From NCBI GenBank assembly GCA_934613415.1, contig CAKTSY010000004.1, positions 210,001-242,000 on the forward strand: DNA of 32,000 bases. The letters are read 5' to 3'. Positions 8,237 through 26,177 of the stretch are shown here, piece after piece. Source of the DNA: an uncultured Opitutales bacterium (GTDB lineage: Bacteria > Verrucomicrobiota > Verrucomicrobiia > Opitutales > Intestinicryptomonadaceae). Made by a program: the position numbers and the translations under genes. The notes under the pieces were generated by a model. That model was not told the origin of the DNA, did no database searches, and saw nothing but the letters and a program-made list of their open reading frames with translations. Position 1 is the first letter of the stretch; the number at the start of each line of letters is the position of its first letter.

Positions 8237-8257
8237 GGCTTTTTACGCAATATAGCA

Positions 8258-9241
8258 ATGGGTTTAAAAGGCGACAACGCTTTTGCAAATCCGTCTAACA
8301 TCGAGCTGTCTGAAGATATACTTAAGGCGGCTCGTATTATTTTAGACGGCGACTGCGTTGCCGTGCCAACCGAAACGGTGTATGGGCTTGCGGCAAACGC
8401 CTATAACGAAAACGCCTGCCGCAAAATTTTTGAAATAAAAAACCGCCCTTTTATAGACCCTTTAATTGTTCACGTTTCGGATATGGCAATGGCCGAAAGC
8501 ATTGCCTACTTTAACGACAAAGCCCGCAAGCTAGCCGAAAGGTTTTGGCCTGGGCCAATGACAATTGTCTTAAAGAAAAAAAACGTAATCCCCGATTTGG
8601 TTTCGGCAAATCTCGACACGGTTGCAATAAGAATGCCGTCGCACAAAATAGCGCACGCTTTAATTGTGGCATCTAAAGTGCCCTTTGCAGCCCCAAGTGC
8701 AAACCCGTTCGGCTATGTAAGCCCCACAAAGGCAGAACACGTACGCGCCCAGCTGGGCGACAAAATAAAGCTTATTTTAGAGGGCGGGCAATGCGACAGG
8801 GGGTTGGAATCTACCATAATTTCGTTGGCAGACCCTAATAAACCCCTGCTTTTGCGCTTTGGGCCTTTGTCAAGAGAAGAGCTTGAAGCATTTTTGGGCG
8901 AAAAGGTTGTTGTGCCCGAAAAGAACCCTGCCCAGCCGATAGCCCCGGGAATGATGAAATCGCACTACAGCCCCAAGGCAAACTTTAAGCTGTTCGAAAA
9001 CGAAAGCGAAATTCCCGAAAATTTTGACGGAGCAATTATATTTTTAAAACGTCCGCAAAATCCAAAAAACAACCATTTTTGGCTTTCCGAAGACGGCAAT
9101 TTGGCGGAAGTTGCAAAAAATCTTTACGACCTTATGCGAAATTGCGACAAAAAATATTCTAAAATACTCTGCCAAAAACCCGAAAATTCGGGTGTGGGAG
9201 CCGCAATTAACGACAGACTTATTCGGGCGAGCAAAAAATAA
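8258..9241 (+). CDS. tsaC: L-threonylcarbamoyladenylate synthase (YrdC domain + Sua5 C-terminal domain)
   Basis: The 327-aa ORF has the YrdC motifs VAVPTETVYGLAANA and PFAAPSANPFG, plus a C-terminal Sua5-type extension. Confidence 0.88.
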   Translation: MGLKGDNAFANPSNIELSEDILKAARIILDGDCVAVPTETVYGLAANAYNENACRKIFEIKNRPFIDPLIVHVSDMAMAESIAYFNDKARKLAERFWPGPMTIVLKKKNVIPDLVSANLDTVAIRMPSHKIAHALIVASKVPFAAPSANPFGYVSPTKAEHVRAQLGDKIKLILEGGQCDRGLESTIISLADPNKPLLLRFGPLSREELEAFLGEKVVVPEKNPAQPIAPGMMKSHYSPKANFKLFENESEIPENFDGAIIFLKRPQNPKNNHFWLSEDGNLAEVAKNLYDLMRNCDKKYSKILCQKPENSGVGAAINDRLIRASKK

Positions 9242-9270
9242 AAAAATTATGGGGCTTTTTTGCAAAAAAA

Positions 9271-9301
9271 GCTTGCACTTGCAATATAACTGTATTTATT
9301 G
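9271..9301 (+). promoter_or_regulatory. Candidate promoter for rplU-rpmA (A-tract + GCTTGCA motif)
   Basis: The sequence caaaaaaaGCTTGCACTTGCAAtataac has the same A-tract/GCTTGCA arrangement as upstream of rpsR. The motif sits about 50 nt before the rplU ATG. The -10 element is unclear (TTATTG at 9296-9301). Confidence 0.3.
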
Positions 9302-9322
9302 GAACTTTTTAAATTTACGATA

Positions 9323-9637
9323 ATGAAAGCGACTATTAAAATTCAAGGAAAACAACTGACGGTATCGGAAGGCGAAATCTTTTTCGTAAACCGCTTCTGC
9401 GACTCCAAAGCTGGCGACACAGTTACCATTAACGAAGTTCTTATGCTCGGCGACGGCGCCGAAGCGAAGTTTGGCACGCCCTATGTCGACGGAGCGAGCG
9501 TAACCGCCAAAATTCTCGAAAACAAGCGCGGCAAGAAGGTAGACATCTTCAAAAAGAAACGCCGTAAGGGTTATCAGCGCAGAAGAGGCCACAGGCAGGA
9601 ATTGTCTGTTATAAAGGTAGAATCTATCAAAGCATAA
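9323..9637 (+). CDS. rplU: 50S ribosomal protein L21
   Basis: I moved the start to [18 protein letters not shown], the typical L21 N-terminus. The protein has a basic C-terminus ([16 protein letters not shown]). Confidence 0.9.
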
Positions 9638-9652
9638 GGAGGCTAATCAGTT

Positions 9653-9892
9653 ATGGCACATAAAAAAGGTCAGTCGTCGGCAGGCAACGGTAAAGATTCT
9701 AACGCACAACGTCGCGGCGTAAAGAAATACGGCGGCGAAGCTATTTTGGCAGGCGGCATTATCGTCCGTCAGTGCGGTACAAAGGTACACCCCGGCTTGA
9801 ATGTCGGAATGGGTAAAGACTACACCCTCTTTGCATTGAAAGACGGCACCGTTAAGTGGGACGGCGCACACCGCAAAGTTTCGGTTTTGTAA
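9653..9892 (+). CDS. rpmA: 50S ribosomal protein L27
   Basis: [29 protein letters not shown]...IIVRQCGTK matches the conserved L27 N-terminus. The gene lies immediately downstream of rplU. Confidence 0.93.
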
Positions 9893-9921
9893 TTTAATAA
9901 AACCTTTATTTGATTTTGTTT

Positions 9922-9949
9922 ATGGCGGGTTTACCCCGCCATTTTTTTT
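9922..9949 (+). terminator. Rho-independent terminator after rpmA
   Basis: A perfect 8-bp stem pairs atggcggg (9922-9929) with cccgccat (9935-9942). A T-run extends to 9949. Confidence 0.8.
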
Positions 9950-10116
9950 GAGCCAAATTTAGGCAAAAGCATATATTGCATAGCTAAAACCTTTGGGAAT
10001 TTGCCACGCGTTTTTTATAAAAACTTTATATATAAAAAAACGGCAAAGCACCGCATTTTAGCAGAACATACAGCTATGCCCCCTGCCCTAATTTTACGGC
10101 ACAATTTTACGCGCAC

Positions 10117-10156
10117 AAAAAAAACTCTCAAAGCAATTTTGCATTGAGAGTTTTTT
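10117..10156. terminator. Bidirectional hairpin terminator, most simply the terminator of the EEP gene
   Basis: The stem ctctcaa (10125-10131) / ttgagag (10144-10150) is flanked by A8 on the left and T6 on the right. It can therefore present a U-tract in either orientation. It lies 23 nt downstream of the minus-strand stop at 10179. Confidence 0.65.
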
Positions 10157-10178
10157 GTTTTAAAAGAAAGCTACTAGG

Positions 10179-11072
10179 TTATTTAAGAACAGCTTCGATA
10201 AATACGGGAAAGTGGTCGGACGGGAACTTTATTTTGTTGCTGTCGCTTATTACCCTGTAAGAGTTTACCTGCGTGTTGTTCTTGTTCACAAAAATGTAGT
10301 CTATGCGCGTTTTTTGCGAAGGCTCAAACCCCTTAAAGGCGTGGAATGTTGCTTCGGGCCCGTATGGTGTTTTTTTCGACAACCCGCGCGAATCTTTAAA
10401 TGTATCCGACGAAAACATAATTTTCATAGGTTCGCTGTCGGAAAATGCGTTAAAGTCGCCCATGCAAAATACGGCGGTGTTTTTGTCCAGCTCGCCCATT
10501 TTCTTTAGCAGCAGCTTTGCAGATTCGGCTCTGGCATAGGGGGCTATATGGTCGAAATGGCTGTTGAATACAACAACGGTTTTGCCGCTTATTTTGTCGC
10601 GCAATTTGGCAAATGTGCAAATTCTTTTGTGCTCTTTAACGTCCCAGCCCAAACTTGGCACTTCGGGAGTTTCCGAATACCAAAAAGTTCCCTTGTCGAG
10701 CAATTCAAAGCGGTCTTTCTTGTAGTATATCGCGCAAGTTTCGCCCGCCTGCTTGCCGTCGTCGCGGCCGGCTGCAACAATGTCGTATTGGGGAAGCTCT
10801 TTGCCTATGTATTCAAGCTGCTGCCAAAACGCCTCTTGCGAGCCCCACAAATCAAAATCGTAGTAGTTTACAAGTGCTTTAACCTGCTCTTTGCGCAAAT
10901 CCCAAATGTTTTCCTTATCCCAGTTGTTTAGCAGTCTTAAGTTCCAGCTGGCAACCTTTACGGGCACGCCGCCTGCACAGGCACTTTCGCCCTTGCAGGG
11001 AAATTTAGAAAACACAAAACCCGCGGCAAATGCCGCAACCGCCAAGCATATAACCAATATTGTTTTTTTCAT
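10179..11072 (-). CDS. Endonuclease/exonuclease/phosphatase (EEP) family protein with signal peptide
   Basis: The 297-aa ORF has the N-terminus MKKTILVICLAVAAFAAGFVFS. VASWNLR, GDFN and the C-terminal SDHFPV are hallmark EEP motifs. Confidence 0.8.
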   Translation of the reverse strand: MKKTILVICLAVAAFAAGFVFSKFPCKGESACAGGVPVKVASWNLRLLNNWDKENIWDLRKEQVKALVNYYDFDLWGSQEAFWQQLEYIGKELPQYDIVAAGRDDGKQAGETCAIYYKKDRFELLDKGTFWYSETPEVPSLGWDVKEHKRICTFAKLRDKISGKTVVVFNSHFDHIAPYARAESAKLLLKKMGELDKNTAVFCMGDFNAFSDSEPMKIMFSSDTFKDSRGLSKKTPYGPEATFHAFKGFEPSQKTRIDYIFVNKNNTQVNSYRVISDSNKIKFPSDHFPVFIEAVLK

Positions 11073-11092
11073 TTTTTATAATCCTCCTATAT

Positions 11093-11989
11093 TTAAGCCT
11101 GCTGCGCCAATAGGCCGCTGCGCCCCGCAAATTCAAGCATTTTAACTTCGCATACTTGTATTTTTTGCGGATCTGCCAACAGCTGTTTTGCCCAGTCTTG
11201 CAGCGAAAAGAATTCTATATTGCGGGCTTTTGCCTCTTTTATAAAGCCTTCAAAATAGTCGAAATAATTTAACGCCTCCAATTCCGAATGTATTGTCATA
11301 ACCGACATTTCGGCACCCAAAATCTTTTCCAAATACATCTGCTTTATTGTGTCTAATGTATTTGCGCCCACGCCCAAAACTTCGTCTAAAGTAGGCAGTG
11401 TAGACGGTATCTGAAGCGTTTTAAAAGTTTTGCCGCCCATTTTTGGGAAAAACGGGCTTTTGCCGCGCGTATCCGATGCATATAGCAAATTGTTTGCGTC
11501 TTCTACCGCAATGGCGTCGGGCGAAATTTGCCAACCGGGGGCACCGCAACAAAGGGGGGCTTGCCCGTAAACTTCAATAAAAGCCGCTTTTGCCTTTTCA
11601 AATTCGGCAGCTACTGCAGTTTTAGACATTTTAAAAATATTGTCTTGCCAGTTGTAGTGGTTCCACGAATGTATGCCGCATTCAAAGCCGCTGTTTTTTG
11701 CCTGCAACATAATGTCGGCGCACTTTTTGTAGATTATAGGTGCAGGCAAAAGCGTTCCGTACATAAGGGTTTTAAGCCCGTAGTTGCCAGCCACATTGCT
11801 GCGCAGGCACTTTTTTATAAAGCCCTTTCTAAACACCCTTGTTATTGCCCTGCCAGTATTGTCGGGCCCAAAGCTAAAAAGGAATGTTGCGGGCACTGCG
11901 TACTTTTCAAACAAACGAAGAAGGGGTATTATCCCCTTCTTTGTTCCCTGATAAGTATCTACATCTATCTTTATTGCAAGCTTGGGCAT
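11093..11989 (-). CDS. arnD: 4-deoxy-4-formamido-L-arabinose-phosphoundecaprenol deformylase-like polysaccharide deacetylase
   Basis: The 298-aa ORF is collinear with E. coli ArnD from my recall of that sequence (KIDVDTYQGTKKG..., FSFGPDN, LQIPSTLPTLDEV, TIHSELE). Its start overlaps the stop of the upstream arnA-like gene by 1 nt. Confidence 0.8.
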   Translation of the reverse strand: MPKLAIKIDVDTYQGTKKGIIPLLRLFEKYAVPATFLFSFGPDNTGRAITRVFRKGFIKKCLRSNVAGNYGLKTLMYGTLLPAPIIYKKCADIMLQAKNSGFECGIHSWNHYNWQDNIFKMSKTAVAAEFEKAKAAFIEVYGQAPLCCGAPGWQISPDAIAVEDANNLLYASDTRGKSPFFPKMGGKTFKTLQIPSTLPTLDEVLGVGANTLDTIKQMYLEKILGAEMSVMTIHSELEALNYFDYFEGFIKEAKARNIEFFSLQDWAKQLLADPQKIQVCEVKMLEFAGRSGLLAQQA

Positions 11990-13038
11990 TACTTTCTCTT
12001 TTGCTCAAGTTCGTAGTCTTTGCTCAACAAGTGGTAGTCTAGCGTAAGGCGTATTGCGGTTTTTAAGTCGGTTGTGGGCTTCCAGCCGAGTTTTTCCTCG
12101 GCCTCTTTTATAGAGGGAATTCTGTATTTTACGTCTTGGTAGCCTTCGCCGTAATACTCTTTTGCCGAAACCGTTTCTATCTTGGCATTTTTGGCGCAGT
12201 CTTCGTAGCCCTTATATTCGCCAATCATTTCAACAAGCATATCGGCCAATTCCTTAATGGAAAAGTCCATATATGGATTGCCTATGTTGAAGATTCTGCG
12301 CGAGGCAACGCCGTCTTTGTTTTCTATGATTTTCAGCATGCAGTCCATAGCGTCGTCTATAAAGGTAAAGCTTCTGCGCTGCGCGCCACCGTCTACAAGC
12401 TTGATTGGCTTGTTGTTTATTATGTTGTGTATAAACTGCGTCAATACGCGCGAAGAGCCCTCTTTTGGGGCTTTAACGTCGTCCAACTTGGGGCCTATAA
12501 AATTGAAAGGTCTAAACAATGTAAAATCTAAGCCTTCGTGCATACCGTACGCCCAAATTACGCGGTCTAACATCTGCTTAATGCACGAGTATATCCAGCG
12601 TTCTTTTGGAACGGGGCCAAGAGTTAAGTTGGAATTGTATTCGTCGAAAGAATCGTCTTGGCACATACCGTATACTTCGGAAGTAGACGGGAACAATATG
12701 CGCGTTTTATATTTTGCGCAAAGTTTTACAACCTCCATATTCGATTCGTAGTCGAGCCTGTAAACCCTAAGAGGGTCTGTTACATACATTCTGGGGGTTG
12801 CAATGGCAACTAGCGGAATTACTACATCGCAGGCTTTTACCTGTTCTTCTATCCAATCGGTGTCTACGGTAACGTCGCCCTTTTTAAAGTGGAATTTTTC
12901 GTAGCCCAAACAGTTTTCAAGCTTGTTCGACGCCATGTCGAACGCGAAAATTTCCCAGTCGGTTTTGTTGAGAATTGCCCACGACAGCGACGAGCCTATA
13001 AAGCCGTTCGCGCCCAATATAAGAATTTTTTTAGACAT
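11989..13038 (-). CDS. arnA: UDP-glucuronate oxidative decarboxylase, stand-alone homolog of the ArnA C-terminal (dehydrogenase) domain
   Basis: I moved the start to MSKKILILGANGFIGSSL (ATG at 13038), because the longer listed ORF would overlap glnB. ArnA-specific blocks are present: VIPLVAIATP, FPSTSEVYGMC, RWIYSCIKQMLDRVIWAYG, FTLFRPFNFIGP and GSSRVLTQF. No formyltransferase domain is present. Confidence 0.85.
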   Translation of the reverse strand: MSKKILILGANGFIGSSLSWAILNKTDWEIFAFDMASNKLENCLGYEKFHFKKGDVTVDTDWIEEQVKACDVVIPLVAIATPRMYVTDPLRVYRLDYESNMEVVKLCAKYKTRILFPSTSEVYGMCQDDSFDEYNSNLTLGPVPKERWIYSCIKQMLDRVIWAYGMHEGLDFTLFRPFNFIGPKLDDVKAPKEGSSRVLTQFIHNIINNKPIKLVDGGAQRRSFTFIDDAMDCMLKIIENKDGVASRRIFNIGNPYMDFSIKELADMLVEMIGEYKGYEDCAKNAKIETVSAKEYYGEGYQDVKYRIPSIKEAEEKLGWKPTTDLKTAIRLTLDYHLLSKDYELEQKRK

Positions 13039-13054
13039 ATATTTTTGCTTTCGA

Positions 13055-13405
<351 letters not shown>

Positions 13406-14975: not shown

Positions 14976-15021
14976 AAACGCCTTTTTCGAGAATCTCCCC
15001 GAAAAAGGCGTTTGTTTTTTT
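14976..15021. terminator. Bidirectional terminator between the convergent HAD gene and the pentapeptide-repeat gene
   Basis: A perfect 14-bp stem pairs aaacgcctttttcg (14976-14989) with cgaaaaaggcgttt (15000-15013). A T-run follows to 15021, and an A-rich stretch lies to the left. Confidence 0.8.
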
Positions 15022-15039: not shown

Positions 15040-18000
15040 TTATTTGCGGCGGTGATAAATTGCCAAACCCAACGCCAGCGCGCCCAAAACAGCGGCAACG
15101 GTTGAAGGTTCCGGAACTTGCGTTGCCAAAATTGTAAACTTGTTTTCGTTTATAACGCAGCTCCAATAGCCGTTAAATGTTTTGCCCTTAATTGTTAGAT
15201 ATAAGCTTTCGTCGGGCTTTAGGTCTTTTAGGCTTGCTATGTTCGAATCGTCTTCAAAGGCAATTAAGTCGAATTGATATTCAACATTGTCTAAAAGGCT
15301 TTCGGTTATGTTCACATTTACTTTGCCGTTAATAACAAGCTTAGACAACGCTTCAACATAAATTTGCGTCGGGTCGCTGGCAGCAGTGTCAATAATAAGC
15401 ACGCCATTTTCGGCTATAGTAAGCGTCTTTTTGTTTACAATGTCTAACCTTGCCCCTGTGTCTAACTTAAGCTCTGCCCCGCCCGAAACGGTTGCGTTGC
15501 TTTCCGAAATCTTCGCGCTAATCATCTCTCCGTCGCTAGTAGCTGGCGTGTATCTGCGAATTGTAAGGTTGTCTGCACCAGACGCCATACCAAAGTTTTT
15601 AATTACACCATCTGCCATTATGGTGTTTTTGTATACGGGAGACGAATCATAGCCACTTTCGGTTACAAAATTAATTGTAGCTCCTCTAAAATCTGCCCTC
15701 GTGAAGTCTGCTTTTTTTGCGGAAACTCTTTCGAATGTTGTGTTGTGCAATATTGCGTCAGTAAAATCCACTCCAAATATGGACATATTTTTAAAAACAG
15801 AGTTTGTTAAATCTTGCGCAACAAAATTCCCCGTGCTAAATGGCGAATTATTAGTATTCGAGGCTTCAAAAGTTATACCGCGCAAATTCTTCTCTTTATA
15901 GCTTTTTGTAGATGCAATTTGACTCCAAGAGACTCCTTGCCTAGAACCACTTGTCGGCTCATATATCTTAAAATAGCAACCTTCAATTATAGCATCTTTA
16001 AAGCTTGCGCTTCTAAGGTAACAAATCGAAAACTTTGAACCTGTTAAATCTTGAGAGCTAAAATCCCAACCTATAAGATCATAAACATAATTGCCGCTTC
16101 CTATAAACGAAACACCCATTAAATTCTTTTCCTTATAACTTTTTGTAGAATACAACTGCTCTTTGCTAAATTTAATTTGAGCACCGCTAATGTCTGCGTC
16201 TGTAAAGTTTGCAGTAGAATCTACCGTGGTATATCCTAAAGACATAACCGCATTTGTTAAGTTTGCATTGCTAAAGTTTGTATTCTTTAGCGTAGCCGAA
16301 ACAAAATTTGAATTGCTTAAATTTGCTCCGCCAAAATCGGTATTTTCCAAAACAGCAGAAGCAAATATGGAATTGCTTAAATTTTTATCTTTAAAATTAG
16401 CACCCGAAAAATCGTTTTTTGTAAAATCTATTCCAGTTAAATCGCCTGTTTTATACGATTTTGTCGAGTATATGTGTTCTTTTAGCAACCCTGTTACATT
16501 CGAAAAATTAACATTATTTATTATGGCATTTTTCATAAATACATTCGAAAATTTAGTCCACGAAAAATTTGAGCCTGTTAAATCTGCACCTGTAAAATTT
16601 ACCATTGTAAGCGTTTTACTGGCAAAATATGAGGATATTTTTGCATGGGAAAAATCTGTACCAGTTAACGAGCCATACCCACCTCCGATAATGGTACAAT
16701 AAGAAAAGTCTGCATCGTCTACATTGGTGCTACCAAAGCTTACATTGTTTAATTTCAAAGACGAAAAGTCCCATCCGCTCATATCAAGTTTGGAGAATTT
16801 GCTCCAGCTTAACTCTCCATTCTTGTAGGATTGAGTGCTATTAAATTGCTCTTCCGTAAATCCAGTAGCCGAACCAAAATCTACATGATCGATATATGTA
16901 TTCGTAAAATCTGTACCCGTTAAATTTGTAGATGCAAAGCTTGCATACGTCAAATCGGCGTTAGACAAATTCCAACCACTTAAATCGTTATTTGAGAAGT
17001 TTATAGATTTTAAAATGCCGTCTTTATAAGACGCCGTAGATTTTAATTGCGCTTCTGTAAAGCCTTTTGCCACCGTTCCCGACAAATCTACACCTTTAAT
17101 TATTGCGTTGGTAAAATTTGTTTTTGCTAGCGTAGCAGACGAAAAGTTTACCGAAGTTAAATTTGCTTGCGAAAGATCAGCAAAAGATAAATCTGACGAA
17201 TAAAATTTTGCACTAGATAAATTTTGCCCAGCAAAATTCCAACCACTTAGATCGTTGCTAGATAGATCTATGCCAGATAGATCCTTATCCTTATAACTTT
17301 TTGTGGAATATAATTGTACTATAGAAAATCCGTTTTTTCGAGCACCCGAAAAACTTGCACCTTTAATTATTGCATTTTCAAAATTTGTGTTGTCGAATTT
17401 CGCGCCATTGAAATTAGCATTGCTTAAATCGCTATCAGTAAAATCTGCCTTTGTTAATGTAGTATTGGAAAAATCCACTTTAGCCAAATTGCTTTCTGTA
17501 AAAATGGCATTTGTTAAATTAATCCCTTTAAAGGCAAAATCGCTTAATTCGTTATTCGAGAAGTTAACGCCTGTTAAATCTTTATCATTATAGCTTTTTG
17601 TTGAACACAGCTGTTCTTTTGTAAATCCTTTATCGACTGTACTTGTAAAATTTGCACCTAATATTGTAGCATTTGTAAAGGTTGCATCTTTTAATACCGC
17701 ATTGCTAAAATTTGCACCTAATATTGTAGCATTTGTAAAGGTTGCATCTTTTAATACCGCATTGCTAAAATTTGCATTTGTCAAATCGCTATTCTTAAGA
17801 TTTGTATTGCTTAAATCATAAGAACTAAAATCGCCACCAGCATATTTAGCACCCGTAAAATCGATACCTGTTAAGGTTTTATCTTTATAACTTTTTGTAG
17901 TTTTTAAATGTTCAAGGCTAAGCCCCGACATAAAAGTAGCACCCAAAATATCTGCATTTTCAAAGTTGGCAGTCGATACCTTTGTAGCACTACTAAAGTC

Positions 18001-18297
18001 TACCCCTTGCAAGTTTGTATTCGAAAAATTTACATTGTTTAGCCCTGCAGCATAAAATATTGCCCCTGCCAAATTTGCGCCTTCAAAAGTGGCGCCTGCA
18101 TAATCCGTATTATATTTACCACCTTTGGAAAAAAGTGTTCCTTTTGCGGCTATAAGATTTTTCCAACTTGAATTTCTGCGCTCAGTTTTTGTTTTATCCG
18201 AGGAATAAGCATATGTCGTTGAAAAATCCCTCCCGCTTACGTCTTGGTTGTCGTAGTTTTCGTTGTCGGCGTATGAGAGGGTCGGCAGGGTTAACAA
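15040..18297 (-). CDS. Giant pentapeptide-repeat protein with C-terminal PEP-CTERM sorting domain; 5' end apparently frame-shifted (see 18302-18370)
   Basis: The 1,085-aa ORF is dominated by A(D/N)LxX-type pentapeptide units (NLSNANFSNAVLKDATFTNA...). A roughly 190-aa non-repeat C-terminal region follows, then VPEPSTVAAVLGALALGLAIYHRRK. The listed start is a TTG with no signal-peptide n-region. This frame has no ATG or GTG upstream before the stop at 18376-18378. Confidence 0.85.
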   Translation of the reverse strand: MLTLPTLSYADNENYDNQDVSGRDFSTTYAYSSDKTKTERRNSSWKNLIAAKGTLFSKGGKYNTDYAGATFEGANLAGAIFYAAGLNNVNFSNTNLQGVDFSSATKVSTANFENADILGATFMSGLSLEHLKTTKSYKDKTLTGIDFTGAKYAGGDFSSYDLSNTNLKNSDLTNANFSNAVLKDATFTNATILGANFSNAVLKDATFTNATILGANFTSTVDKGFTKEQLCSTKSYNDKDLTGVNFSNNELSDFAFKGINLTNAIFTESNLAKVDFSNTTLTKADFTDSDLSNANFNGAKFDNTNFENAIIKGASFSGARKNGFSIVQLYSTKSYKDKDLSGIDLSSNDLSGWNFAGQNLSSAKFYSSDLSFADLSQANLTSVNFSSATLAKTNFTNAIIKGVDLSGTVAKGFTEAQLKSTASYKDGILKSINFSNNDLSGWNLSNADLTYASFASTNLTGTDFTNTYIDHVDFGSATGFTEEQFNSTQSYKNGELSWSKFSKLDMSGWDFSSLKLNNVSFGSTNVDDADFSYCTIIGGGYGSLTGTDFSHAKISSYFASKTLTMVNFTGADLTGSNFSWTKFSNVFMKNAIINNVNFSNVTGLLKEHIYSTKSYKTGDLTGIDFTKNDFSGANFKDKNLSNSIFASAVLENTDFGGANLSNSNFVSATLKNTNFSNANLTNAVMSLGYTTVDSTANFTDADISGAQIKFSKEQLYSTKSYKEKNLMGVSFIGSGNYVYDLIGWDFSSQDLTGSKFSICYLRSASFKDAIIEGCYFKIYEPTSGSRQGVSWSQIASTKSYKEKNLRGITFEASNTNNSPFSTGNFVAQDLTNSVFKNMSIFGVDFTDAILHNTTFERVSAKKADFTRADFRGATINFVTESGYDSSPVYKNTIMADGVIKNFGMASGADNLTIRRYTPATSDGEMISAKISESNATVSGGAELKLDTGARLDIVNKKTLTIAENGVLIIDTAASDPTQIYVEALSKLVINGKVNVNITESLLDNVEYQFDLIAFEDDSNIASLKDLKPDESLYLTIKGKTFNGYWSCVINENKFTILATQVPEPSTVAAVLGALALGLAIYHRRK
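15043..15117 (-). other. PEP-CTERM sorting signal (PEP motif, TM helix, basic tail)
   Basis: The last 25 codons encode VPEPSTVAAVLGALALGLAIYHRRK. This is the canonical tripartite exosortase recognition architecture. Confidence 0.85.
17646..17776. repeat. Perfect 60-bp tandem direct repeat (about 2.2 copies) inside the pentapeptide-repeat gene
   Basis: Positions 17646-17716 are identical to 17706-17776. The protein shows the duplication as NAVLKDATFTNATILGANF twice in a row. Confidence 0.95.
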
Positions 18298-18301
18298 TGC
18301 A

Positions 18302-18370
18302 CTAATGATATATATATATATATATATATATATACGATTTCTTGGGTTGGAGCGTGTTTTTGATGTCCAT
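18302..18370 (-). other. Displaced 5' segment of the pentapeptide-repeat gene: RBS + ATG + signal-peptide n-region, ending at an out-of-frame stop
   Basis: A minus-strand AAAGGAA Shine-Dalgarno (18388-18382) lies 11 nt upstream of the ATG at 18370. Translation gives MDIKNTLQPKKS, then YIYIYIYIY from the TA tract, then H and TAG (18304-18302). The distance from this ATG to the main frame is 73 nt, which is 1 mod 3. Confidence 0.7.
18308..18334. repeat. Perfect dinucleotide microsatellite, 27 nt of alternating AT/TA ((TA)13 plus one base)
   Basis: I counted the tract directly: 'ata' at 18308-18310, two full 10-nt 'tatatatata' blocks, then 'tata' at 18331-18334. It lies between the ATG at 18370 and the body of the pentapeptide-repeat ORF. 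Confidence 0.97.
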
Positions 18371-18522: not shown

Positions 18523-18553
18523 AAAAAAGGCTTTGGAGACTCCAAAGCCTTTT
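18523..18553 (-). terminator. Strong rho-independent terminator upstream of the pentapeptide-repeat gene promoter region
   Basis: A perfect 13-bp stem pairs aaaaggctttgga (18525-18537) with tccaaagcctttt (18541-18553) around a 3-nt loop. The A-run at 18523-18528 gives a U-tract on the minus strand. Confidence 0.75.
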
Positions 18554-19582: not shown

Positions 19583-19696
19583 ATCAACCCACTCGGCAGA
19601 TTCTGCAAAAATTGTAAATTTGTCAAAAAAATTTTACGCATAAAACTATTTGACAAAATTGCCCCAAACGCAAAATCTTTTTATATCTATAACGCT

Positions 19697-20875
19697 ATGG
19701 ACAACTTAAAATCGAAGAAGCTTACCTACCGGCTGGCGGCCGCGCTTTTCTTTTTTATGATAGGCTCGACATTTGCGGCGTGGGCAAGCCGTATACCCGA
19801 TATAAAAGAGCACCTTAACATTACCGACGGGCAGCTTGGCACAGCTTTGCTGGGGTTGCCTATAGGGCAAATGTTGGCAATGGCGGTTTCGGGCCACCTT
19901 GTGGGCAAGTTCGGCAGCAAAAAAATGCTCTCTATTGGAATGCTGTTATATCCGCTCGGCTTTATATTTATCGCCTTTTGCAACAGCTACTACCAGTTTA
20001 TTGCGGCTTTGCTTGCAACGGGCATTTTTGCAAACTTAAGCAACATTTCGGTAAACACGCAGGCCGTAGGCGTAGAAAGGCTATACGGCAAAAGCATAAT
20101 GGCGGCGTTTCACGGCGTATGGAGCTTGGCGGGTTTTTTGGGCGGGCTTTTAAGCTATTTGGTTGTAAAGCTAAACATTTCGGTTTTAACGCACTTTTCG
20201 GTTGTATATGCAATAGTGGCAATTCTTGCAATTTTTGCGCAAAAATACCTTTTGCCGCAAGATATTGCAGAAAATACCCAGCACCCCCACCCCCCCAAGC
20301 ACGGCGTAAATTTGCCCGATATGTTCCTTGTTTTGCTGGGCTTTACGGCGTTTTCGTCGATGGCGTGCGAGGGCACAATGTTCAACTGGAGCGGCGTATA
20401 TTTTAAAAGCGTTGTAAACGCCCCAAAAGAATATGTTTCGCTAGGCTATACCGCCTTTATGTGCCTAATGGCAACGGGCAGGTTTTGCGGAGACTTTTTT
20501 ATAAACCGCTTCGGGCATACAAATGTAATGAAGTTTAGCGGCGTTTTAATATTTTTTGGGCTAACGCTTTCGGTTGCAATGCCAACTATGCTTTTTGCCG
20601 CTATAGGCTTTGCCTTTGTGGGCATGGGGGTGTCTTCAATAGTACCGCTTTCGTACAGCTTGGCGGGGCGTTCAAAAACAATGGATACGGGCAACGCCAT
20701 TGCAACCGTTGCAACCATAGGGTTTTTCGGCTTTTTAATGGGCCCGCCAATAATAGGCTTTTTGTCGGACAAATACAGCCTTAGGGTTTCGTTTTTAACC
20801 ATTGCGCTTGTTGGGCTTTTAATGACTGCAATTTCGCCCCTAGTCAAGCGCAAGCTTGCCGAAAACGAAGAATAA
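19697..20875 (+). CDS. MFS transporter
   Basis: The 392-aa ORF has about 12 hydrophobic segments in two halves, split by a central loop (QDIAENTQHPHPPKHG). Confidence 0.8.
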   Translation: MDNLKSKKLTYRLAAALFFFMIGSTFAAWASRIPDIKEHLNITDGQLGTALLGLPIGQMLAMAVSGHLVGKFGSKKMLSIGMLLYPLGFIFIAFCNSYYQFIAALLATGIFANLSNISVNTQAVGVERLYGKSIMAAFHGVWSLAGFLGGLLSYLVVKLNISVLTHFSVVYAIVAILAIFAQKYLLPQDIAENTQHPHPPKHGVNLPDMFLVLLGFTAFSSMACEGTMFNWSGVYFKSVVNAPKEYVSLGYTAFMCLMATGRFCGDFFINRFGHTNVMKFSGVLIFFGLTLSVAMPTMLFAAIGFAFVGMGVSSIVPLSYSLAGRSKTMDTGNAIATVATIGFFGFLMGPPIIGFLSDKYSLRVSFLTIALVGLLMTAISPLVKRKLAENEE

Positions 20876-20928
20876 ACGTCAGCTTGCGCAGTTTTTTGCC
20901 CTGCCTTACTAAAAGCTTATAAAATGAA

Positions 20929-20968
20929 GGCGGCCAATCTTCCCCAAGATTGGCCGCCAATTTATTTT
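20929..20968 (+). terminator. Rho-independent terminator after the MFS gene
   Basis: A perfect 13-bp stem pairs ggcggccaatctt (20929-20941) with aagattggccgcc (20946-20958) around the loop cccc. The sequence aatttatttt follows. Confidence 0.75.
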
Positions 20969-20990
20969 CTACTTTACTTTTATTACCCCA

Positions 20991-21006
20991 TCTCCCTTTC
21001 GGGAGA
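20991..21006. terminator. Small GC hairpin in the convergent intergenic region (possible terminator for the regulator gene or a back-up for the MFS gene)
   Basis: The hairpin is tctccc-tttc-gggaga. The U-tract is poor on both strands. Confidence 0.25.
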
Positions 21007-21102
21007 AATAGTTTTATTTTCGATAGTAAAATATTTATAAGAATTGCAAAAAGTCAAGCGGTTTTTGTAAAAATTTTAACTTTTTTGCCGTTTTTATACG
21101 TT

Positions 21103-22137
21103 TTATATGGTGTTGCCGCGAATTAAATAGGTTTCTACCGTTTTGTTCAAGTCGGGGTTCCAGTCTAAAATCTGTTTGCCAACCTGCCTTCCCATATCGT
21201 AAAAATCTATGCTTATGGTAGAAACACCACCCTCTATTATGTGCTTCATAGCCATATCGTTGTAGGTAATTATGCCGTAGTCGCGCTTAAGCTTTAGCCC
21301 TTCGCTTTGCGACATTTTTATTAGGTGAACTAAGTCGGAATCTTGCACTAAAAACCATAGTGTGTTGCGGTGTATGTTGGCGGGCAAAACTTCGTCGTCT
21401 ACATAGCAGTTAAAACCGTTTCTTTTGCAAAATTCGCGGAACATTGCAACGGTTTCCTGCGGGTGGGCGTGGTGCGGGTTGTTTACAAACCTAAAGTCGA
21501 AGCCCTTATATTTTTCCAAATCGGGGGCAAGCTTTTCCATAGCCTTTAAAAAGTTTGTATCAAAATTCTGTATTATTCTAGAACACGCCTTGTTGGGAAA
21601 ATCTACGTCTAAATCTATAAGCAAAAGCTTTTTTTGGTCTATAGACGAAAGCAGTTTCGACGTCTGCTCCGACCTCATGGGGATAACCGCGTAATATTCG
21701 TACTTACCTATTGCGTTTTCAAGCAAAGTTGTAAAGTTCCTTTCGCTGCGGTTGTGCGAGGCAAAATTTAGCGTGGCCTTGTCGCCTACAACGTCTATTA
21801 TGCCCCTTGCAATGGCGGCCTTATAGGGCGTGCTTAAGAAATTGAAAAGCAAAAACACATTGCGCTTTTTGTCGTAGGTAGACTTAAGCACAAAAAACGA
21901 CTTGCCTTGATGCGCGCCTATAAGCCCCTTTTCTTTTAGCGTGCCGTATGCCTTTCTTACAGTTTCGCAGGCTATTTTGCAAAAGCGCGCCGTTTTGTTT
22001 ATTGAGGGCAGAACATCGCCCTTTTTAAGCATACCCGAAATAACCGAGTCTATAACCACATCGGCTATAACCTGCGGCTTGGGTTTTTCGGATTTGTCTA
22101 GCGAATCTTTTAGCAGTGTAAGGAAGTTGTCTTTCAT
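21103..22137 (-). CDS. Transcriptional regulator: GntR-type winged HTH fused to a LacI/periplasmic-binding-protein-like sugar-binding domain
   Basis: The 344-aa ORF has an N-terminal region (LPSINKTARFCKIACETVRKAYGTLKEKGLIGAHQGKSFFV) typical of a GntR HTH. The remaining roughly 270 aa alternate beta/alpha segments like a PBP type-1 fold. The gene is divergent from eda. Confidence 0.65.
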   Translation of the reverse strand: MKDNFLTLLKDSLDKSEKPKPQVIADVVIDSVISGMLKKGDVLPSINKTARFCKIACETVRKAYGTLKEKGLIGAHQGKSFFVLKSTYDKKRNVFLLFNFLSTPYKAAIARGIIDVVGDKATLNFASHNRSERNFTTLLENAIGKYEYYAVIPMRSEQTSKLLSSIDQKKLLLIDLDVDFPNKACSRIIQNFDTNFLKAMEKLAPDLEKYKGFDFRFVNNPHHAHPQETVAMFREFCKRNGFNCYVDDEVLPANIHRNTLWFLVQDSDLVHLIKMSQSEGLKLKRDYGIITYNDMAMKHIIEGGVSTISIDFYDMGRQVGKQILDWNPDLNKTVETYLIRGNTI

Positions 22138-22295
22138 ACGAGGCCTTTTAAATTATATTTATACTTAACAAACTGGCAAACTTTACTACTTAACTTTTTT
22201 TATTTTGGCAATGTTATTTTTGCATACGCATAAATAAACTTGTAAAAACGGCGTTTGCGTCGAAAATTTTTAGGCGAATTTAACATATAAAAAAG

Positions 22296-22946
22296 ATGAA
22301 AGCACAAGAAATTATAGACAGCGTAAAAAGCAAAAAGCTTATCGCGGTAATTACAATTAACGACGCAAAAAATGCGGTTCCTCTGGCAAAGGCTCTATAT
22401 AACGGCGGCATTAGCGCAATAGAGCTTACGCTTAGAACGGACGCTGCCCTTGAATCTATAAAAAGAATTCGCGCCGAAGTTCCCGAAATGGTTGTAGCAG
22501 CAGGCACGGTGCTAACCCCCAAACAGATAGACGAAGTTGTTAAAGCCGGCGCGCATTGGGCTGTTGCCCCCGGAACAAACCCGAGAGTTTTGCAGGCGGC
22601 TAAAGATGCAGGGCTTTTCTTTGCCCCCGGTATTATGACGCCCTCCGACATAGAGGCGGCGTTGGAATTCGGCTGCAGGCTTTTAAAATTCTTCCCCGCA
22701 GGCACAACGGGCGGAATGAAGCACCTAAAGGCAATGAGCGCGCCCTACAACCACTTGGGACTTTCGTACATTCCCCTTGGCGGAGTAAATACCACAAACT
22801 TGGCAGACTTTGTAAGCGATCCTTTAATTGCCGCAGTTGGCGGTTCTTGGTTGGCAAAGCCCGACCAAATTAAAAACGGAGAATTCGACAAGATTCAAGC
22901 CCAAGCCGAAGAAGCTGCAAAGATTATAGCTTCGGTAAACAAATAG
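22296..22946 (+). CDS. eda: 2-dehydro-3-deoxyphosphogluconate (KDPG) / 4-hydroxy-2-oxoglutarate aldolase
   Basis: The 216-aa ORF has the GISAIELTLRT, AAGTVL and LKFFPA (Schiff-base Lys context) blocks of Eda. Confidence 0.88.
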   Translation: MKAQEIIDSVKSKKLIAVITINDAKNAVPLAKALYNGGISAIELTLRTDAALESIKRIRAEVPEMVVAAGTVLTPKQIDEVVKAGAHWAVAPGTNPRVLQAAKDAGLFFAPGIMTPSDIEAALEFGCRLLKFFPAGTTGGMKHLKAMSAPYNHLGLSYIPLGGVNTTNLADFVSDPLIAAVGGSWLAKPDQIKNGEFDKIQAQAEEAAKIIASVNK

Positions 22947-22977
22947 TTTTTTAATTTAAAACTTTGCAGTAAATAAG

Positions 22978-23010
22978 AGAGCCGCTCCATCATTCGGGGC
23001 GGCTCTTTTT
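22978..23010. terminator. Terminator between the convergent eda and BNR genes
   Basis: The stem pairs agagccgc (22978-22985) with gcggctct (22999-23006). A T5 run follows to 23010. Confidence 0.7.
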
Positions 23011-23047
23011 GCGTGTTATAATATTTTATTTTGAAATGTTTATGCGT

Positions 23048-24271
23048 TTATTTCTTTGCGGGTTTTACATTCCACTTTACCACATATAGCCCAACTCCAG
23101 CCGAAGTTTTTGTATAGAACATTGTAAGCAAAGAGCCGTCTTTTAAAACTACAGAGCTAGGATACCCCGCATCGCCCTTAGAGCCTTCTAAAGCCCCCGC
23201 CAAGCGTATTTCGCCGCCCCAGGTTTTGCCGAAGTCGCCGCTAATTTTTGCGTAAATGCCCTCTTTGCCCTTAACGCGCTTTGCGTAGGTGCACAAAATG
23301 CCCCTGTCGCCCAAGTTAAGCAAATGCGGCGGGTAGCCTTCAATGTCAACTTCGTGGGCAAGTGTCCAAGTTCTGCCAAAATCGAAGCTTTCCGACTGCA
23401 AGAGTTTTGCGTTGGGCTTGTCGGGGTCGGTCTTGTCTTGCCTGCGCATTTGCACCAAAAGCATTCCGTTAGAGCATTCTACAACGCATGGTTCCGAAAC
23501 CGTTTTTTTGTCGGTATCCACAAATTTTCTCGCTACGGGAATTTCGCCTATAACATTCCATGTGCGCCCCAAATCTTTAGATTCCTCGGCAAAAATTTTC
23601 CCCGTGCTGCGGTCTTTCCACCATTGTTCTGGGTTTTCGTGCGGGTCTATTGTGCGATCGCGATGCTTGCCGACATATAGCAACGACTTGTTACTTAACG
23701 CAACCGCGCCGTGTGGAGCCGAAGTATAGGTTTGCACCGGCCTTGCCCATTTGCGCCCTACAGTGTCTACCGAGCGAATTTGCCAATTGCCAAGAGCGGC
23801 AGTCCTCTCCTTTTCGGTTGTATTTTTAAAAACTACCTTAGATTCTTCAAAGCCCTTCCAGCTTGTTACCCTTCTAGAATCCAACCCCGAATAAAACGAC
23901 ACTAGCAAATTGCCGTCGGGCATTTCGCAAACGCCGGCATCGCGGTCGTCTACAATCGAAGAATATACCGTTTCGGGAGCACTCCAAGTTTTGCCCGAGT
24001 CGACAGAGCGTATAAGCTGGATTTTCCCCGAAAAGCACATTTTTGCGTTTCTGTCGCCCGAAAATACGGCAATCAACTCGCCGTTTTGGCGTGCAATAAG
24101 GGTACTCCAAGCCAAATACCTATCTTTTACAAAGCAGGCGGGCTTTATCCATTCAATCTTGGCTGCGCCCTGCTCGGTTGGAATGTCGGTTATAACAAAA
24201 TCGTTGTCGGCGGCAAAAGCTGCAAACGTTGCAAACATTGCCAAAGCTGAAAATATCTTTTTAATGTTCAT
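23048..24271 (-). CDS. BNR/Asp-box repeat beta-propeller protein (sialidase/GH33-like) with signal peptide
   Basis: The 407-aa ORF starts MNIKKIFSALAMFATFAAFA. It has four SxDxGxTW Asp-boxes (SVDSGKTWS, SKDLGRTWN, SFDFGRTWT, SGDFGKTWG). I did not see a clear FRIP motif, so sialidase activity itself is uncertain. Confidence 0.7.
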   Translation of the reverse strand: MNIKKIFSALAMFATFAAFAADNDFVITDIPTEQGAAKIEWIKPACFVKDRYLAWSTLIARQNGELIAVFSGDRNAKMCFSGKIQLIRSVDSGKTWSAPETVYSSIVDDRDAGVCEMPDGNLLVSFYSGLDSRRVTSWKGFEESKVVFKNTTEKERTAALGNWQIRSVDTVGRKWARPVQTYTSAPHGAVALSNKSLLYVGKHRDRTIDPHENPEQWWKDRSTGKIFAEESKDLGRTWNVIGEIPVARKFVDTDKKTVSEPCVVECSNGMLLVQMRRQDKTDPDKPNAKLLQSESFDFGRTWTLAHEVDIEGYPPHLLNLGDRGILCTYAKRVKGKEGIYAKISGDFGKTWGGEIRLAGALEGSKGDAGYPSSVVLKDGSLLTMFYTKTSAGVGLYVVKWNVKPAKK

Positions 24272-24297
24272 AATGTCTACCTATTATAAAAATTAAA

Positions 24298-24471
24298 TTA
24301 TTTGGTTTTGCGCCTAAAAAAGCTGCGTCGGGGCTTTTCTGTATTTATGCTGCCCATACCGTGAACCTTTTTGTATTTGTCGGCAAGCATAACTTTTACT
24401 ATGCAAAATGCAAAAAACAAAACTACGCACGATGTAGAAATTAAAAATGTAAGCCAGCCGCCGAATGTCAT
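24298..24471 (-). CDS. Unannotated 57-aa single-pass membrane protein, translationally coupled to the NSS transporter (MetS-like small subunit candidate)
   Basis: This ORF is below the 60-aa cutoff of the ORF track. Its ATG (24471-24469) overlaps the NSS TGA (24470-24468) as ATGA. A perfect AGGAGG (24485-24480) lies 8 nt upstream. The product is MTFGGWLTFLISTSCVVLFFAFCIVKVMLADKYKKVHGMGSINTEKPRRSFFRRKTK, with one TM helix and a basic tail. Confidence 0.65.
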   Translation of the reverse strand: MTFGGWLTFLISTSCVVLFFAFCIVKVMLADKYKKVHGMGSINTEKPRRSFFRRKTK

Positions 24472-26177
24472 TTTCTTAGCCTCCTAGACTTGTATGTTTT
24501 AGAGAATTTTGCAATTCCCGCAAAAAATAGATATATAAAGAGCATAATGCAAACGCTCATAACCGCAATCTTGTCGGGGTTTTTGCCTATTATATCGCTA
24601 AAATACGAGCTTTTGCCCTCGAAAAGTATCTTTACTTCTTTCGAAATCCAAAGTATGAAAATCGCAAAAAGCGCAAACGGGGCAAAATACTGCAGAATAT
24701 AGGCGGTTATTATGGGAGCTTTCATTAAAGAGCCCCTGTTTGCCATTCTTATGCCTCGCTTTGTGCCTATTACATAAACAAAAACTGCAGCCATAATCAT
24801 CGTCAAAATATATATGCAAACCTGACCGCACCAAAAGTCGAAAGTGTCTAACGCCTTTAGGTTTTTAGAAAAGTACGCCACAAAGAACGATGGAAACACA
24901 GTAAGGGCAATCATTACCCAAACAGCGTGCTTGCGCTCGAACTTAACGGCTTCGCCGAAAAACGCTATTGCAGGCTGCAGCATAGAAAGCGAGCTTGTAA
25001 CCGCGCCCAAAAACAAAAGCGAAAAGAACATAAAGCCGAACAAAGCCCCGCACCATAGCGACGAAAAGAAAACGGGCAAAATCTTAAATCCCAAGTCGAA
25101 CAAACTTAGGCAAGACCCCAGCGTTGCGCTTACGCCGAAAAACGCAACTGCGGCAGGCACGGTAATCAAACCGCCTATGCAGACTTCGCAAAACTCGTTT
25201 GTGCTTGCCGCGCTAACTGCGCCCAAAACAATGTCGTCGTTCTTTTTTATGTAGCTGGCATAGGTCATTATCGCGCAAAAGCCAACCGTAAGGCTAAAGA
25301 ACACCTGGCCTGCGGCGGCAATCCATATCTGCGGGTTAAGCAGCTGTTTTAAAAGCGAAATTTTTACAATCCTAAATTCGCCGGGCGTTTTTGCGGCAAT
25401 ATTTTCGCCCCTGGCTATGGCGGGGGTGCCTACAAGCCTTTCTGCTTGCACCCATTCGTTTTTGCCCGAATCGAATTTTTCAAGAAAAACCTGTTCGGGA
25501 TTCCACATAAAGCCCAGGCCCGTGTTTAGGCTTTGCTCGGGCTTGTTTATGTCGGGCGTGCCCAGGCACATAACCCTTACAACCAAAATAAGCCCCAGCA
25601 AAAAAAGCATCGGCATTGCGTATTTGCAAAAGAACTCTATGCCCTTCGAAACTCCCCTGTATATTATGTAAAAATTCAATACAAAAACTATCAAAAAATA
25701 CGGCAGCAGCTTTTTAAAGCTGAACGAAAACGCGCCGCCGTCGGCGCTTATGCCCGTAAATTCGTTAAAAAACCCGGCCGATTCCGCCAAAGTTTTAAAA
25801 TGCAAATTGTCGAACGCAAAATTTACCGCATAGCCCAAGCACCAAGCCTCTATATATATGTAGTACGAAAATACTATTGTTGTAAGCATTACAGCCAAAA
25901 CGCCCATGTATTTTGCGCACTTGTTTTTCCATAGCGAATGAAATATGCCCACGGGCGAGTTAAAGCCCAAAAGGCCGCCCTCGCGCCCCATTGTCCATTC
26001 TACAATAGAAAGCGGCAAGGCTATAAAGAAAAAGGAAATTACATACGCAATCATAAACGATGCGCCGCCGTAGGTTGCCACCTGCCCCGGGAACTTAAGA
26101 AAATTGCCCAAGCCTACCGCGCTGCCTGCAACCGCAAGAATTACGCCTATGTGCGAGCTCCAGTTTTCCCTTTTCAC
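24468..26177 (-). CDS. Sodium-dependent transporter, neurotransmitter:sodium symporter (NSS/SNF) family
   Basis: The 569-aa ORF has the hallmark N-terminus WSSHIGVILAVAGSAVGLGNFLKFPGQVATYGGASF and about 12 TM segments. Confidence 0.88.
   Translation of the reverse strand: MKRENWSSHIGVILAVAGSAVGLGNFLKFPGQVATYGGASFMIAYVISFFFIALPLSIVEWTMGREGGLLGFNSPVGIFHSLWKNKCAKYMGVLAVMLTTIVFSYYIYIEAWCLGYAVNFAFDNLHFKTLAESAGFFNEFTGISADGGAFSFSFKKLLPYFLIVFVLNFYIIYRGVSKGIEFFCKYAMPMLFLLGLILVVRVMCLGTPDINKPEQSLNTGLGFMWNPEQVFLEKFDSGKNEWVQAERLVGTPAIARGENIAAKTPGEFRIVKISLLKQLLNPQIWIAAAGQVFFSLTVGFCAIMTYASYIKKNDDIVLGAVSAASTNEFCEVCIGGLITVPAAVAFFGVSATLGSCLSLFDLGFKILPVFFSSLWCGALFGFMFFSLLFLGAVTSSLSMLQPAIAFFGEAVKFERKHAVWVMIALTVFPSFFVAYFSKNLKALDTFDFWCGQVCIYILTMIMAAVFVYVIGTKRGIRMANRGSLMKAPIITAYILQYFAPFALFAIFILWISKEVKILFEGKSSYFSDIIGKNPDKIAVMSVCIMLFIYLFFAGIAKFSKTYKSRRLRK

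Follow-up and report, generated by a model that had tools for sequence, protein, structure and literature searches.

The stretch analysed here, referred to throughout as the window, comprises 32,000 nucleotides of contig CAKTSY010000004.1 (positions 210,001 to 242,000, forward strand) in assembly GCA_934613415.1 of an uncultured Opitutales bacterium. Its minus strand carries the gene of a large pentapeptide-repeat protein (PRP), in the 5' end of which a perfect run of TA dinucleotides lies between an upstream ATG and the rest of the open reading frame (ORF). The number of TA units in this run varies among assemblies, and both in-frame and out-of-frame alleles occur. In a Pfam scan the ORF matches PF00805 with E = 1.2e-84 in 13 stretches (277.7 bits against a cut-off of 20.2) and PF13599 with E = 1.2e-77 (256.5 bits against 38). 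The ORF and its 5' end are made up as follows.

15040..18297, minus strand: PRP ORF as called, 1,085 amino acids from a TTG plus the stop codon, including 10 residues of the broken signal peptide
18335..18370, minus strand: true start (ATG at 18370-18368) and basic n-region of the signal peptide, MDIKNTLQPKKS
18308..18334, minus strand: perfect (TA)13T tract within the signal-peptide coding region, encoding (Tyr-Ile)n; 13.5 copies, 100% match
18268..18307, minus strand: rest of the signal peptide, ISALLTLPTLSYA, with predicted cleavage between SYA and DNENYD

The sequence AAGGAA sits 11-17 nt upstream of ATG 18370, and no Shine-Dalgarno-like sequence is found ahead of the TTG start. Because of the 13 TA units at 18308-18334, the ATG is out of frame with the 1,085-codon ORF; its own frame meets a stop codon just past the tract, and the window allele is thus OFF. 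According to the frame arithmetic on the window, solely (TA)11 or (TA)14 rejoin the ATG to the ORF, in which case the leader reads MDIKNTLQPKKS(YI)nISALLTLPTLSYA-DNEN, the hyphen marking the cleavage site. Since the tract codes for Tyr-Ile repeats in every frame, it can supply part of the hydrophobic core. The first-pass annotation of this DNA had described a reconstructible signal peptide. A leader can indeed be restored at n = 11 or 14, but the ORF as it stands has none and the (TA)13 tract had been overlooked. A TTG-initiated product would retain just ten leader residues; gene callers pick this internal TTG and the signal peptide is lost, so that such genes look cytoplasmic in databases. 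The tract is the sole long simple sequence repeat (SSR) in the 32 kb, where the longest other dinucleotide run has four units; the chance expectation is about 2e-12.

Several human-gut assemblies, many of which derive from Hadza samples, contain the locus. A scan of genome contigs returned a single locus, in the metagenome-assembled genome 'Opitutales bacterium isolate SUG3736', with flanks that are 94.5-95.2% identical to the window. Scanning a metagenome collection with the tract flanks gave no match, while a protein-pattern scan returned the locus denoted L020 and 78 other loci. The alleles are listed by tract length, ON denoting that the ATG is in frame with the ORF.

(TA)13: window and L002, OFF
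(TA)12: L001, L003, L004 and L005, OFF
(TA)11: L006, ON, gene called from the ATG
(TA)10: L020, ON
(TA)6: L008, OFF

The tract is therefore polymorphic in length, and alleles of both states, ON and OFF, exist. No substitutions separate the window, L001, L003 and L005 over 3.9 kb, and their differences are confined to the number of TA units and to a 60-bp repeat. In L020 the gene is complete and in frame, encoding 1,088 amino acids with the leader MDTKTRSNPRNRIYIYIYIISALLTLPTLSYA and the same eight linkers (see below). Its n-region (L020:11-46, compared with window 18335-18370) has a one-base deletion, as a consequence of which (TA)10 becomes the in-frame length. The peptide encoded in this second frame is still basic, MDTKTRSNPRNR compared with MDIKNTLQPKKS in the window. 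The length polymorphism between samples suggests that the tract also switches within one population.

The protein itself is dominated by the repeat array. Hydrophobic residues recur strongly every five positions over residues 1-860 (autocorrelation 0.47 at lag 5 and 0.33 at lag 10), and eight copies of an ST(K)SYK linker motif, at residues 133, 232, 331, 420, 487, 611, 717 and 796, interrupt the array.

15667..18120, minus strand: pentapeptide-repeat array, residues ~60-877, interrupted by eight linkers
17812..17937, minus strand: linker module 1, residues 121-162, contains LKTTKSYKDKTLTGIDF
17515..17640, minus strand: linker module 2, residues 220-261, GFTKEQLCSTKSYNDKDLTGVNF
17218..17343, minus strand: linker module 3, residues 319-360
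16951..17076, minus strand: linker module 4, residues 408-449
16750..16875, minus strand: linker module 5, residues 475-516
16378..16503, minus strand: linker module 6, residues 599-640
16060..16185, minus strand: linker module 7, residues 705-746, two short helices (KEQLY and KSYK) in the model
15823..15948, minus strand: linker module 8, residues 784-825, two short helices in the model

All eight motifs reported in the first-pass annotation are confirmed by residue position. The intervals of 100-130 amino acids given there need correction, as the linkers follow each other at 99, 99, 89, 67, 124, 106 and 79 residues, i.e. at 67-124. From the composition of the window protein, about 0.007 chance matches to [ST][TS][KAQ]SY[KN] are expected.

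With a 42-position profile built from the eight window copies, 10,982 cluster representatives are matched at E<=1e-3; 1,895 of these remain at E<=1e-10 and 511 at E<=1e-30. The best matches are proteins of 645-4,059 amino acids with 7-59 matched stretches each, and the QLxSTxSY core is present two or more times in 119 of the 120 best full-length homologues. The commonest linker-to-linker distances in the family are 69, 89, 109 and 129 amino acids, which are steps of one 20-residue coil. These profile matches place the window protein in a large family that is uncharacterised and whose members come chiefly from Verrucomicrobiota and Planctomycetota; named sources include Opitutia (Intestinicryptomonas porci and strain KCR 482) and the planctomycetes Adhaeretor, Aeoliella and Mucisphaera. 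The suggestion that the protein is of an undescribed type thus does not stand, since its linker module and architecture recur in hundreds to thousands of database proteins. These are annotated only generically, as 'pentapeptide repeat-containing protein'. The scan of the window protein returned no dedicated Pfam or NCBIfam model for the linker or the C-terminal domain, and in the literature searched nothing was found on the linker family, nor anything relevantly joining the pentapeptide repeat with PEP-CTERM, exosortase or phase variation. What is new here is a proposed contingency switch, formed by the (TA)n run in the signal peptide, and the cassette-level hypervariability described below, the modular design itself being common to the family.

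Two known families were considered and rejected. The Alr5209 family (NF052603) reaches 200 bits against a cut-off of 125 only by summing six separate stretches of repeat, the best stretch of this 113-position profile covering residues 334-406 of 1,085. Membership of the Qnr/MfpA DNA mimics fails on score (Qnr 142.3 against 240, MfpA 93.9 against 360), with all Qnr subfamilies below their cut-offs. A separate observation concerns the 944-residue protein P0086, attributed to Culturomica massiliensis (Bacteroidota), which has an Opitutales-type leader (..LLYADNENYD), the linkers, the C-terminal domain and a PEP-CTERM tail; contamination, mis-binning or horizontal transfer may account for its source.

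Residues 700-1085 were modelled by AlphaFold2 (AF2) using a 36-sequence alignment, with a predicted local distance difference test (pLDDT) score of 90.9 and a predicted template modelling score (pTM) of 0.86. Each modelled linker consists of two short helices (KEQLY and KSYK; SWSQI and KSYK), and between the linkers β-bridges occur at a spacing of five residues. From about residue 889 onwards the model is an all-β domain of regular short strands, and the tail past the PEP motif forms a 21-residue helix (1064-1084). Because the pTM is high, the model suggests that the modules form a rigid assembly rather than loose beads. Structural neighbours of the model are PRPs only and are weak (E ~1e-3; TM 0.2-0.45 on straight PRP solenoids).

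The C-terminal part comprises two features.

15118..15633, minus strand: conserved non-repeat all-β C-terminal domain, residues 889-1060, as seen from periodicity, model and a ratio of non-synonymous to synonymous substitution rates (dN/dS) of 0.11-0.16
15043..15117, minus strand: PEP-CTERM sorting signal, consisting of VPEP, a hydrophobic helix and a C-terminal HRRK

Autocorrelation shows no five-residue hydrophobic periodicity in residues 890-1060. Together with the all-β fold in the AF2 model, this bears out the separate β-rich, non-repeat C-terminal part proposed from the first reading of the sequence. When used alone as a query, this domain gave only 11 matches, every one of them PRP-linked or short. 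The terminus of the protein reads VPEP-STVAAVLGALALGLAIY-HRRK. The PEP-CTERM anchor claimed for it is retained as far as this tripartite layout and TIGR02595 are concerned, which scores the tail VPEPSTVAAVLGALALGLAIYHRRK narrowly above its cut-off (16.5 bits against 16); the same tail stays below the cut-off of PF07589 (13.3 against 20.7). According to Haft et al. (PMC1569441), PF07589 misses the Verrucomicrobium set. In alignment A1 of 36 homologues, P363, E364 and P365 are invariant or nearly so. It is the only PEP-CTERM protein in the window, and the same tail is present in 38 of the 41 gut-type homologue loci from metagenomes.

In close homologues a classical signal peptide directly precedes the conserved mature start ADNENYD or ADYENYD. 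By sequence, the putative signal peptide is absent from the out-of-frame window allele and present in the in-frame alleles L006 and L020 as well as in the homologues. A PEP-CTERM-like tail ends 90 of the 120 best full-length homologues; at the end of others there are autotransporter, dockerin or lectin modules. Ser, Thr and Asn together account for 32% of the residues of the window protein, a richness that is typical of PEP-CTERM proteins (Haft et al., PMC1569441). Because of the homologue signal peptides ahead of DNENYD, the frequency of PEP-CTERM-like tails and the Ser/Thr/Asn content, export is the most likely destination of the PRP protein. It would be exported by Sec, processed by an exosortase and exposed at the surface, where it may act as a fibre, an adhesin or a coat. 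The adhesin role is plausible as a candidate.

The repeat core varies between alleles, in coil number as well as in its entirety.

17646..17776, minus strand: perfect 60-bp tandem duplication, 2.2 copies; the unit encodes 20 amino acids or one β-helix coil (NFSNAVLKDATFTNATILGA)
15634..18223, minus strand: hypervariable cassette, residues ~26-888, wholly swapped in a relative with ~95%-identical flanks

L003 (1,065 amino acids) and L020 each have one copy of the 60-bp repeat fewer, and the length of the rod thus shifts in steps of a single coil. L008 is ~95% identical to the window in the promoter region, the leader, the first ~25 codons, the last ~197 codons and the flanks, while an unrelated five-module core (L008:3076-4487) is found in place of window 18223-15634. 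The repeat core has therefore been replaced as a cassette. At the same site L009 (L009:855-2438) carries another allele with four modules, an ordinary signal peptide, a different leader and an extra upstream gene; its downstream flank is ~95% identical. L004 (ERZ4561717) is identical to the window over ~2.9 kb and then shows 35 substitutions confined to the 3' region. These cluster from about codon 837 onwards, in the last 880 nt of the gene and on into the terminator region behind it, and this stretch looks like a recombination tract that starts near the junction of the repeat array and the C-terminal domain. The G+C content at third codon positions (GC3) is 0.27 in the core, 0.46 in the C-terminal domain and 0.52-0.57 in the neighbouring genes, and the PRP genes of other loci (L008, L010 and L019) are likewise AT-shifted compared with their genomes. 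This shift suggests either horizontal exchange or a mutational bias linked to the repeats. Given the swapped cores and the aberrant GC3, the exposed part behaves as an exchangeable cassette between conserved recombination anchors.

Taken together, we consider it fairly probable that the gene encodes a phase-variable, hypervariable, exosortase-sorted surface fibre and is a contingency gene of human-gut Opitutales (Verrucomicrobiota). In this model, a permissive (TA)n length would allow translation from ATG 18370, giving a precursor of ~1,107 amino acids in the case of (TA)14. The precursor would start with a Sec signal peptide with a hydrophobic core partly encoded by the tract as (Tyr-Ile)n. 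Eight modules would follow, each a two-helix 'QLYSTKSYK' linker and then a few coils of four-sided β-helix, and after these the ~170-residue all-β C-terminal domain and the PEP-CTERM tail with its PEP motif, membrane helix and basic end. Sorting would proceed via the PEP-CTERM/exosortase route. Slipped-strand mispairing would alter the tract by whole TA units, and each such change would shift the frame between the ATG with its n-region and the remainder, turning synthesis on or off. As a second layer of variation, the exposed rod would gain or lose single coils at the 60-bp repeat, and recombination would swap the whole repeat core between a 5' leader and a 3' domain that are both conserved. 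Host antibody or phage may be the selective agent.

Several observations weigh against a phase-variable surface fibre. The hidden Markov model (HMM) support for the PEP-CTERM tail is marginal for TIGR02595 and below the threshold for PF07589, and the predicted hydrophobic core of Tyr/Ile repeats is unusual for a signal peptide. The search for an exosortase proposed in the first-pass annotation turned up none, either in the Pfam annotations of the 32-kb window and the fetched loci or among six multi-pass membrane ORFs. The proposed AlphaFold check succeeded for residues 700-1085, while the single-sequence prediction of the full-length protein reached a pLDDT of 41, too poor to give the shape of the whole rod; a structural search with the C-terminal domain gave no analogue. 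Seven of the nine alleles are OFF, and the four metaSPAdes contigs all have n = 12 whereas the two Logan contigs have 11 and 13. The assembler-linked counts leave some room for an assembler effect, even though the 27-nt tract is shorter than the k-mers used. If all TA-length differences were sequencing or assembly artefacts, the real gene would be uniformly in or out of frame, and dinucleotide runs do stutter in libraries prepared with the polymerase chain reaction. We nevertheless regard this as quite unlikely. With a tract of at most 27 nt and k = 31 or more, each assembly should give the dominant allele of the reads; five lengths are seen in nine assemblies from several studies, n = 13 comes from two independent sources (the window and L002), and n = 6 and n = 10 occur in diverged lineages.

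The preponderance of out-of-frame alleles, among them all four full-length metaSPAdes contigs, could also mean that a frameshift in an unstable TA run has recently killed the gene and that tract lengths now drift; a related PRP gene in the isolate genome L018 is broken into three ORFs. We judge a recent pseudogene unlikely. The 1,085-codon ORF is intact in every full-length assembly despite the 37% G+C content of the DNA, two alleles are in frame, one of them complete, and the tract is at the same codon position across lineages that have diverged by 12%. The window and L020, which share 83% amino-acid identity, differ by ~200 synonymous and 189 non-synonymous changes, and all four indels are in frame (3, 3, 5 and 20 amino acids). 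Over these ~390 differences the dN/dS is 0.21 for the whole gene, 0.24 for the repeat core and 0.11 for the C-terminal domain. For the latter, values of 0.15-0.16 are obtained against four further alleles, two of them OFF, and also between two OFF lineages; neighbouring genes give 0.04 and 0.24. The PRP gene is under purifying selection, and a dN/dS of ~0.2 argues that it is no pseudogene. A contingency locus is recognised by just this combination: continuing purifying selection, and a frameshift at a single hypermutable tract in most sampled alleles. In a further alternative the protein starts at the TTG without a signal peptide and is intracellular like the small DNA-mimic PRPs, or else is a tail-anchored inner-membrane protein. 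Weak similarity, at the general PRP level, to Qnr, MfpA and HetL models and structures is in line with this. However, the NCBIfam scores, including that for HetL (195 against 260), are far under the cut-offs, the protein is five times the size of those PRPs and ends in a conserved PEP-CTERM tail, and all homologues have signal peptides ahead of the same mature N-terminus. Furthermore, the TTG lacks the Shine-Dalgarno-like sequence and the in-frame alleles begin at the upstream ATG. An intracellular protein is therefore very improbable.

The closest known switch, by analogy, is the CT repeat of Helicobacter pylori oipA. As in OipA (HopH) and related Hop outer-membrane proteins, whose CT repeats lie in the 5' (signal-peptide) coding region, a dinucleotide run near the 5' end of the sequence coding for a surface protein would toggle the frame. 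The oipA repeat changes by slipped-strand units and natural isolates mix ON and OFF alleles (PMC10564699). In the Opitutales gene the repeat is TA instead of CT, the host is a gut commensal of the Verrucomicrobiota, the product is a PEP-CTERM β-solenoid and not a β-barrel porin-like adhesin, and switching is deduced from polymorphism between samples. With the substrates of the PEP-CTERM/exosortase system (EpsH, XrtA) the predicted precursor shares the N-terminal signal peptide and the C-terminal PEP motif, membrane helix and basic cluster. Such substrates are Ser/Thr/Asn-rich, highly diverse and subject to paralogous expansions in bacteria of the Planctomycetes-Verrucomicrobia-Chlamydiae (PVC) group (PMC1569441, PMC4960237); they were first defined in Verrucomicrobium spinosum and have been detected by mass spectrometry in Akkermansia muciniphila. 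The present protein differs from them in that its passenger is a pentapeptide-repeat solenoid with a family-specific C-terminal domain, and in its marginal HMM support.

A pentapeptide-repeat β-helix is used as an extracytoplasmic scaffold in Legionella DotG/IcmE, in cyanobacterial and plant lumenal Rfr proteins and in the luminal domain of SV2, and extracytoplasmic PRPs are thus not unprecedented. DotG is the best sequence match in the PDB (E = 7e-26), and PF23894 (LD_SV2) also matches the window protein. The QLYSTxSYK two-helix linkers, the C-terminal β-domain, the PEP-CTERM tail and the phase-variation switch are absent from DotG, Rfr and SV2. Qnr, MfpA and AlbG, which are cytoplasmic dimers of ~200 amino acids that act on gyrase, have the repeat fold in common with the window protein. 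The window protein differs from them in carrying predicted export and sorting signals, and it fails all of their cut-offs.

At other loci of the family a different device is found. In 15 related PRP loci, paralogous or allelic, a homologous tyrosine recombinase is located divergently upstream, accompanied by a perfect inverted-repeat pair. Twenty gut-type loci offer 1.5 kb or more of sequence on the upstream side, and 11 of these have the recombinase. The arms of the inverted repeats are 13-25 nt long with the core GTATT-NNN-AATAC, and are 147-165 bp apart between the recombinase and the PRP operon. Their central triplet differs among loci and always co-varies between the two arms. Elements of this type lie at L010:3218-5232, L018:7025-10001 (CP149973.1, Opitutia bacterium KCR 482) and L019:1-734, and also at L022, L025, L026, L033, L034, L036, L040, L041, L042, L046, L047, L049 and L052. 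The recombinase and inverted repeats probably constitute an invertible promoter; both orientations were seen at no recombinase locus, comparisons of orientation being the same or uninformative. The element resembles the invertons of gut Bacteroides and Akkermansia, whereas the window locus uses a TA tract. For the window itself an invertible promoter was rejected, as neither recombinase nor inverted repeats are found there. Invertons are common in Verrucomicrobiota, the Akkermansia motif being CGGATT..AATCCG (PMC13343947), and no report of repeat-tract switching in this phylum was found in the literature. Within the PRP family, switching thus appears to rely on two different devices, in keeping with a product that is exposed at the surface and is either costly or a target.

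In some alleles a conserved gene of ~250 codons lies between the inverted repeats and the PRP gene. It was noted at L009:84-830, L010:4446-5219 and L018:8246-9007 (51% identity between L009 and L010) and its product ends in a ...YPRRNC.xCP motif. It matches no Pfam family and is absent from the window allele.

Pentapeptide-repeat proteins are abundant, yet few have a known function, and most of those few are cytoplasmic DNA mimics. The large family described here is predicted to use the fold as an exported, sorted and modular rod. A wider proposal, which we put forward tentatively as a serious possibility, is that solenoids with QLYSTxSYK linkers form a major unrecognised class of exosortase-sorted surface fibres in PVC bacteria. 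They would be the principal variable surface antigens of human-gut Opitutales, switched at the same chromosomal site by either of two interchangeable devices, a dedicated tyrosine-recombinase inverton or a (TA)n tract within the signal peptide, and diversified by coil slippage and cassette exchange. If this proposal is true, the present gene would be the first described case of an SSR contingency locus in the Verrucomicrobiota, and the pentapeptide-repeat fold would have its first antigenically variable role outside the cell. The gene resembles the contingency loci of pathogens in its on/off switch, coil-number slippage, cassette replacement and purifying selection on the scaffold, and its lineage consists of gut commensals enriched in non-industrialised populations (Hadza samples). 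It bears on the purpose of exported PRPs and on the surface variation of little-studied gut Verrucomicrobiota that may be under antibody or phage pressure.

Some minor observations concern assemblies of related loci. The Logan contigs L014-L017 all break 393 nt upstream of the stop codon of the gene, and L002 and L006, also Logan contigs, break at the 60-bp repeat. These recurrent unitig breaks are consistent with an assembly graph that branches at the internal repeat and at a C-terminal segment common to other alleles or paralogues. Opitutia bacterium KCR 482, an isolate with a complete genome, has its homologous PRP gene (L018:9018-12133) in the form of three overlapping ORFs of 114, 253 and 710 amino acids, with no long repeat tract at the ORF junctions; it may be a real pseudogene or result from sequencing errors.

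The PRP gene is flanked by two hairpins.

18525..18553, minus strand: intrinsic-terminator-like hairpin, 13-bp stem and T-tail; terminates the upstream esterase gene and marks the 5' boundary of the PRP unit
14976..15013, minus strand: strong terminator-like hairpin, 17-bp stem, directly past the PRP stop codon

With a terminator-like hairpin on either side, the gene is a predicted monocistronic unit. The remainder of the window (1-13400 and 19600-31610) encodes GH92, BNR/sialidase-like and GH42-like proteins, an altronate dehydratase, a mannitol-type dehydrogenase, an SNF-family transporter and a KDPG-type aldolase. Housekeeping neighbours are ProRS-like, Sua5, L21/L27 and QueG. Judging from these annotations, the context is that of a glycan-degrading gut bacterium, with ordinary chromosomal carbohydrate-metabolism and housekeeping genes around the PRP gene.

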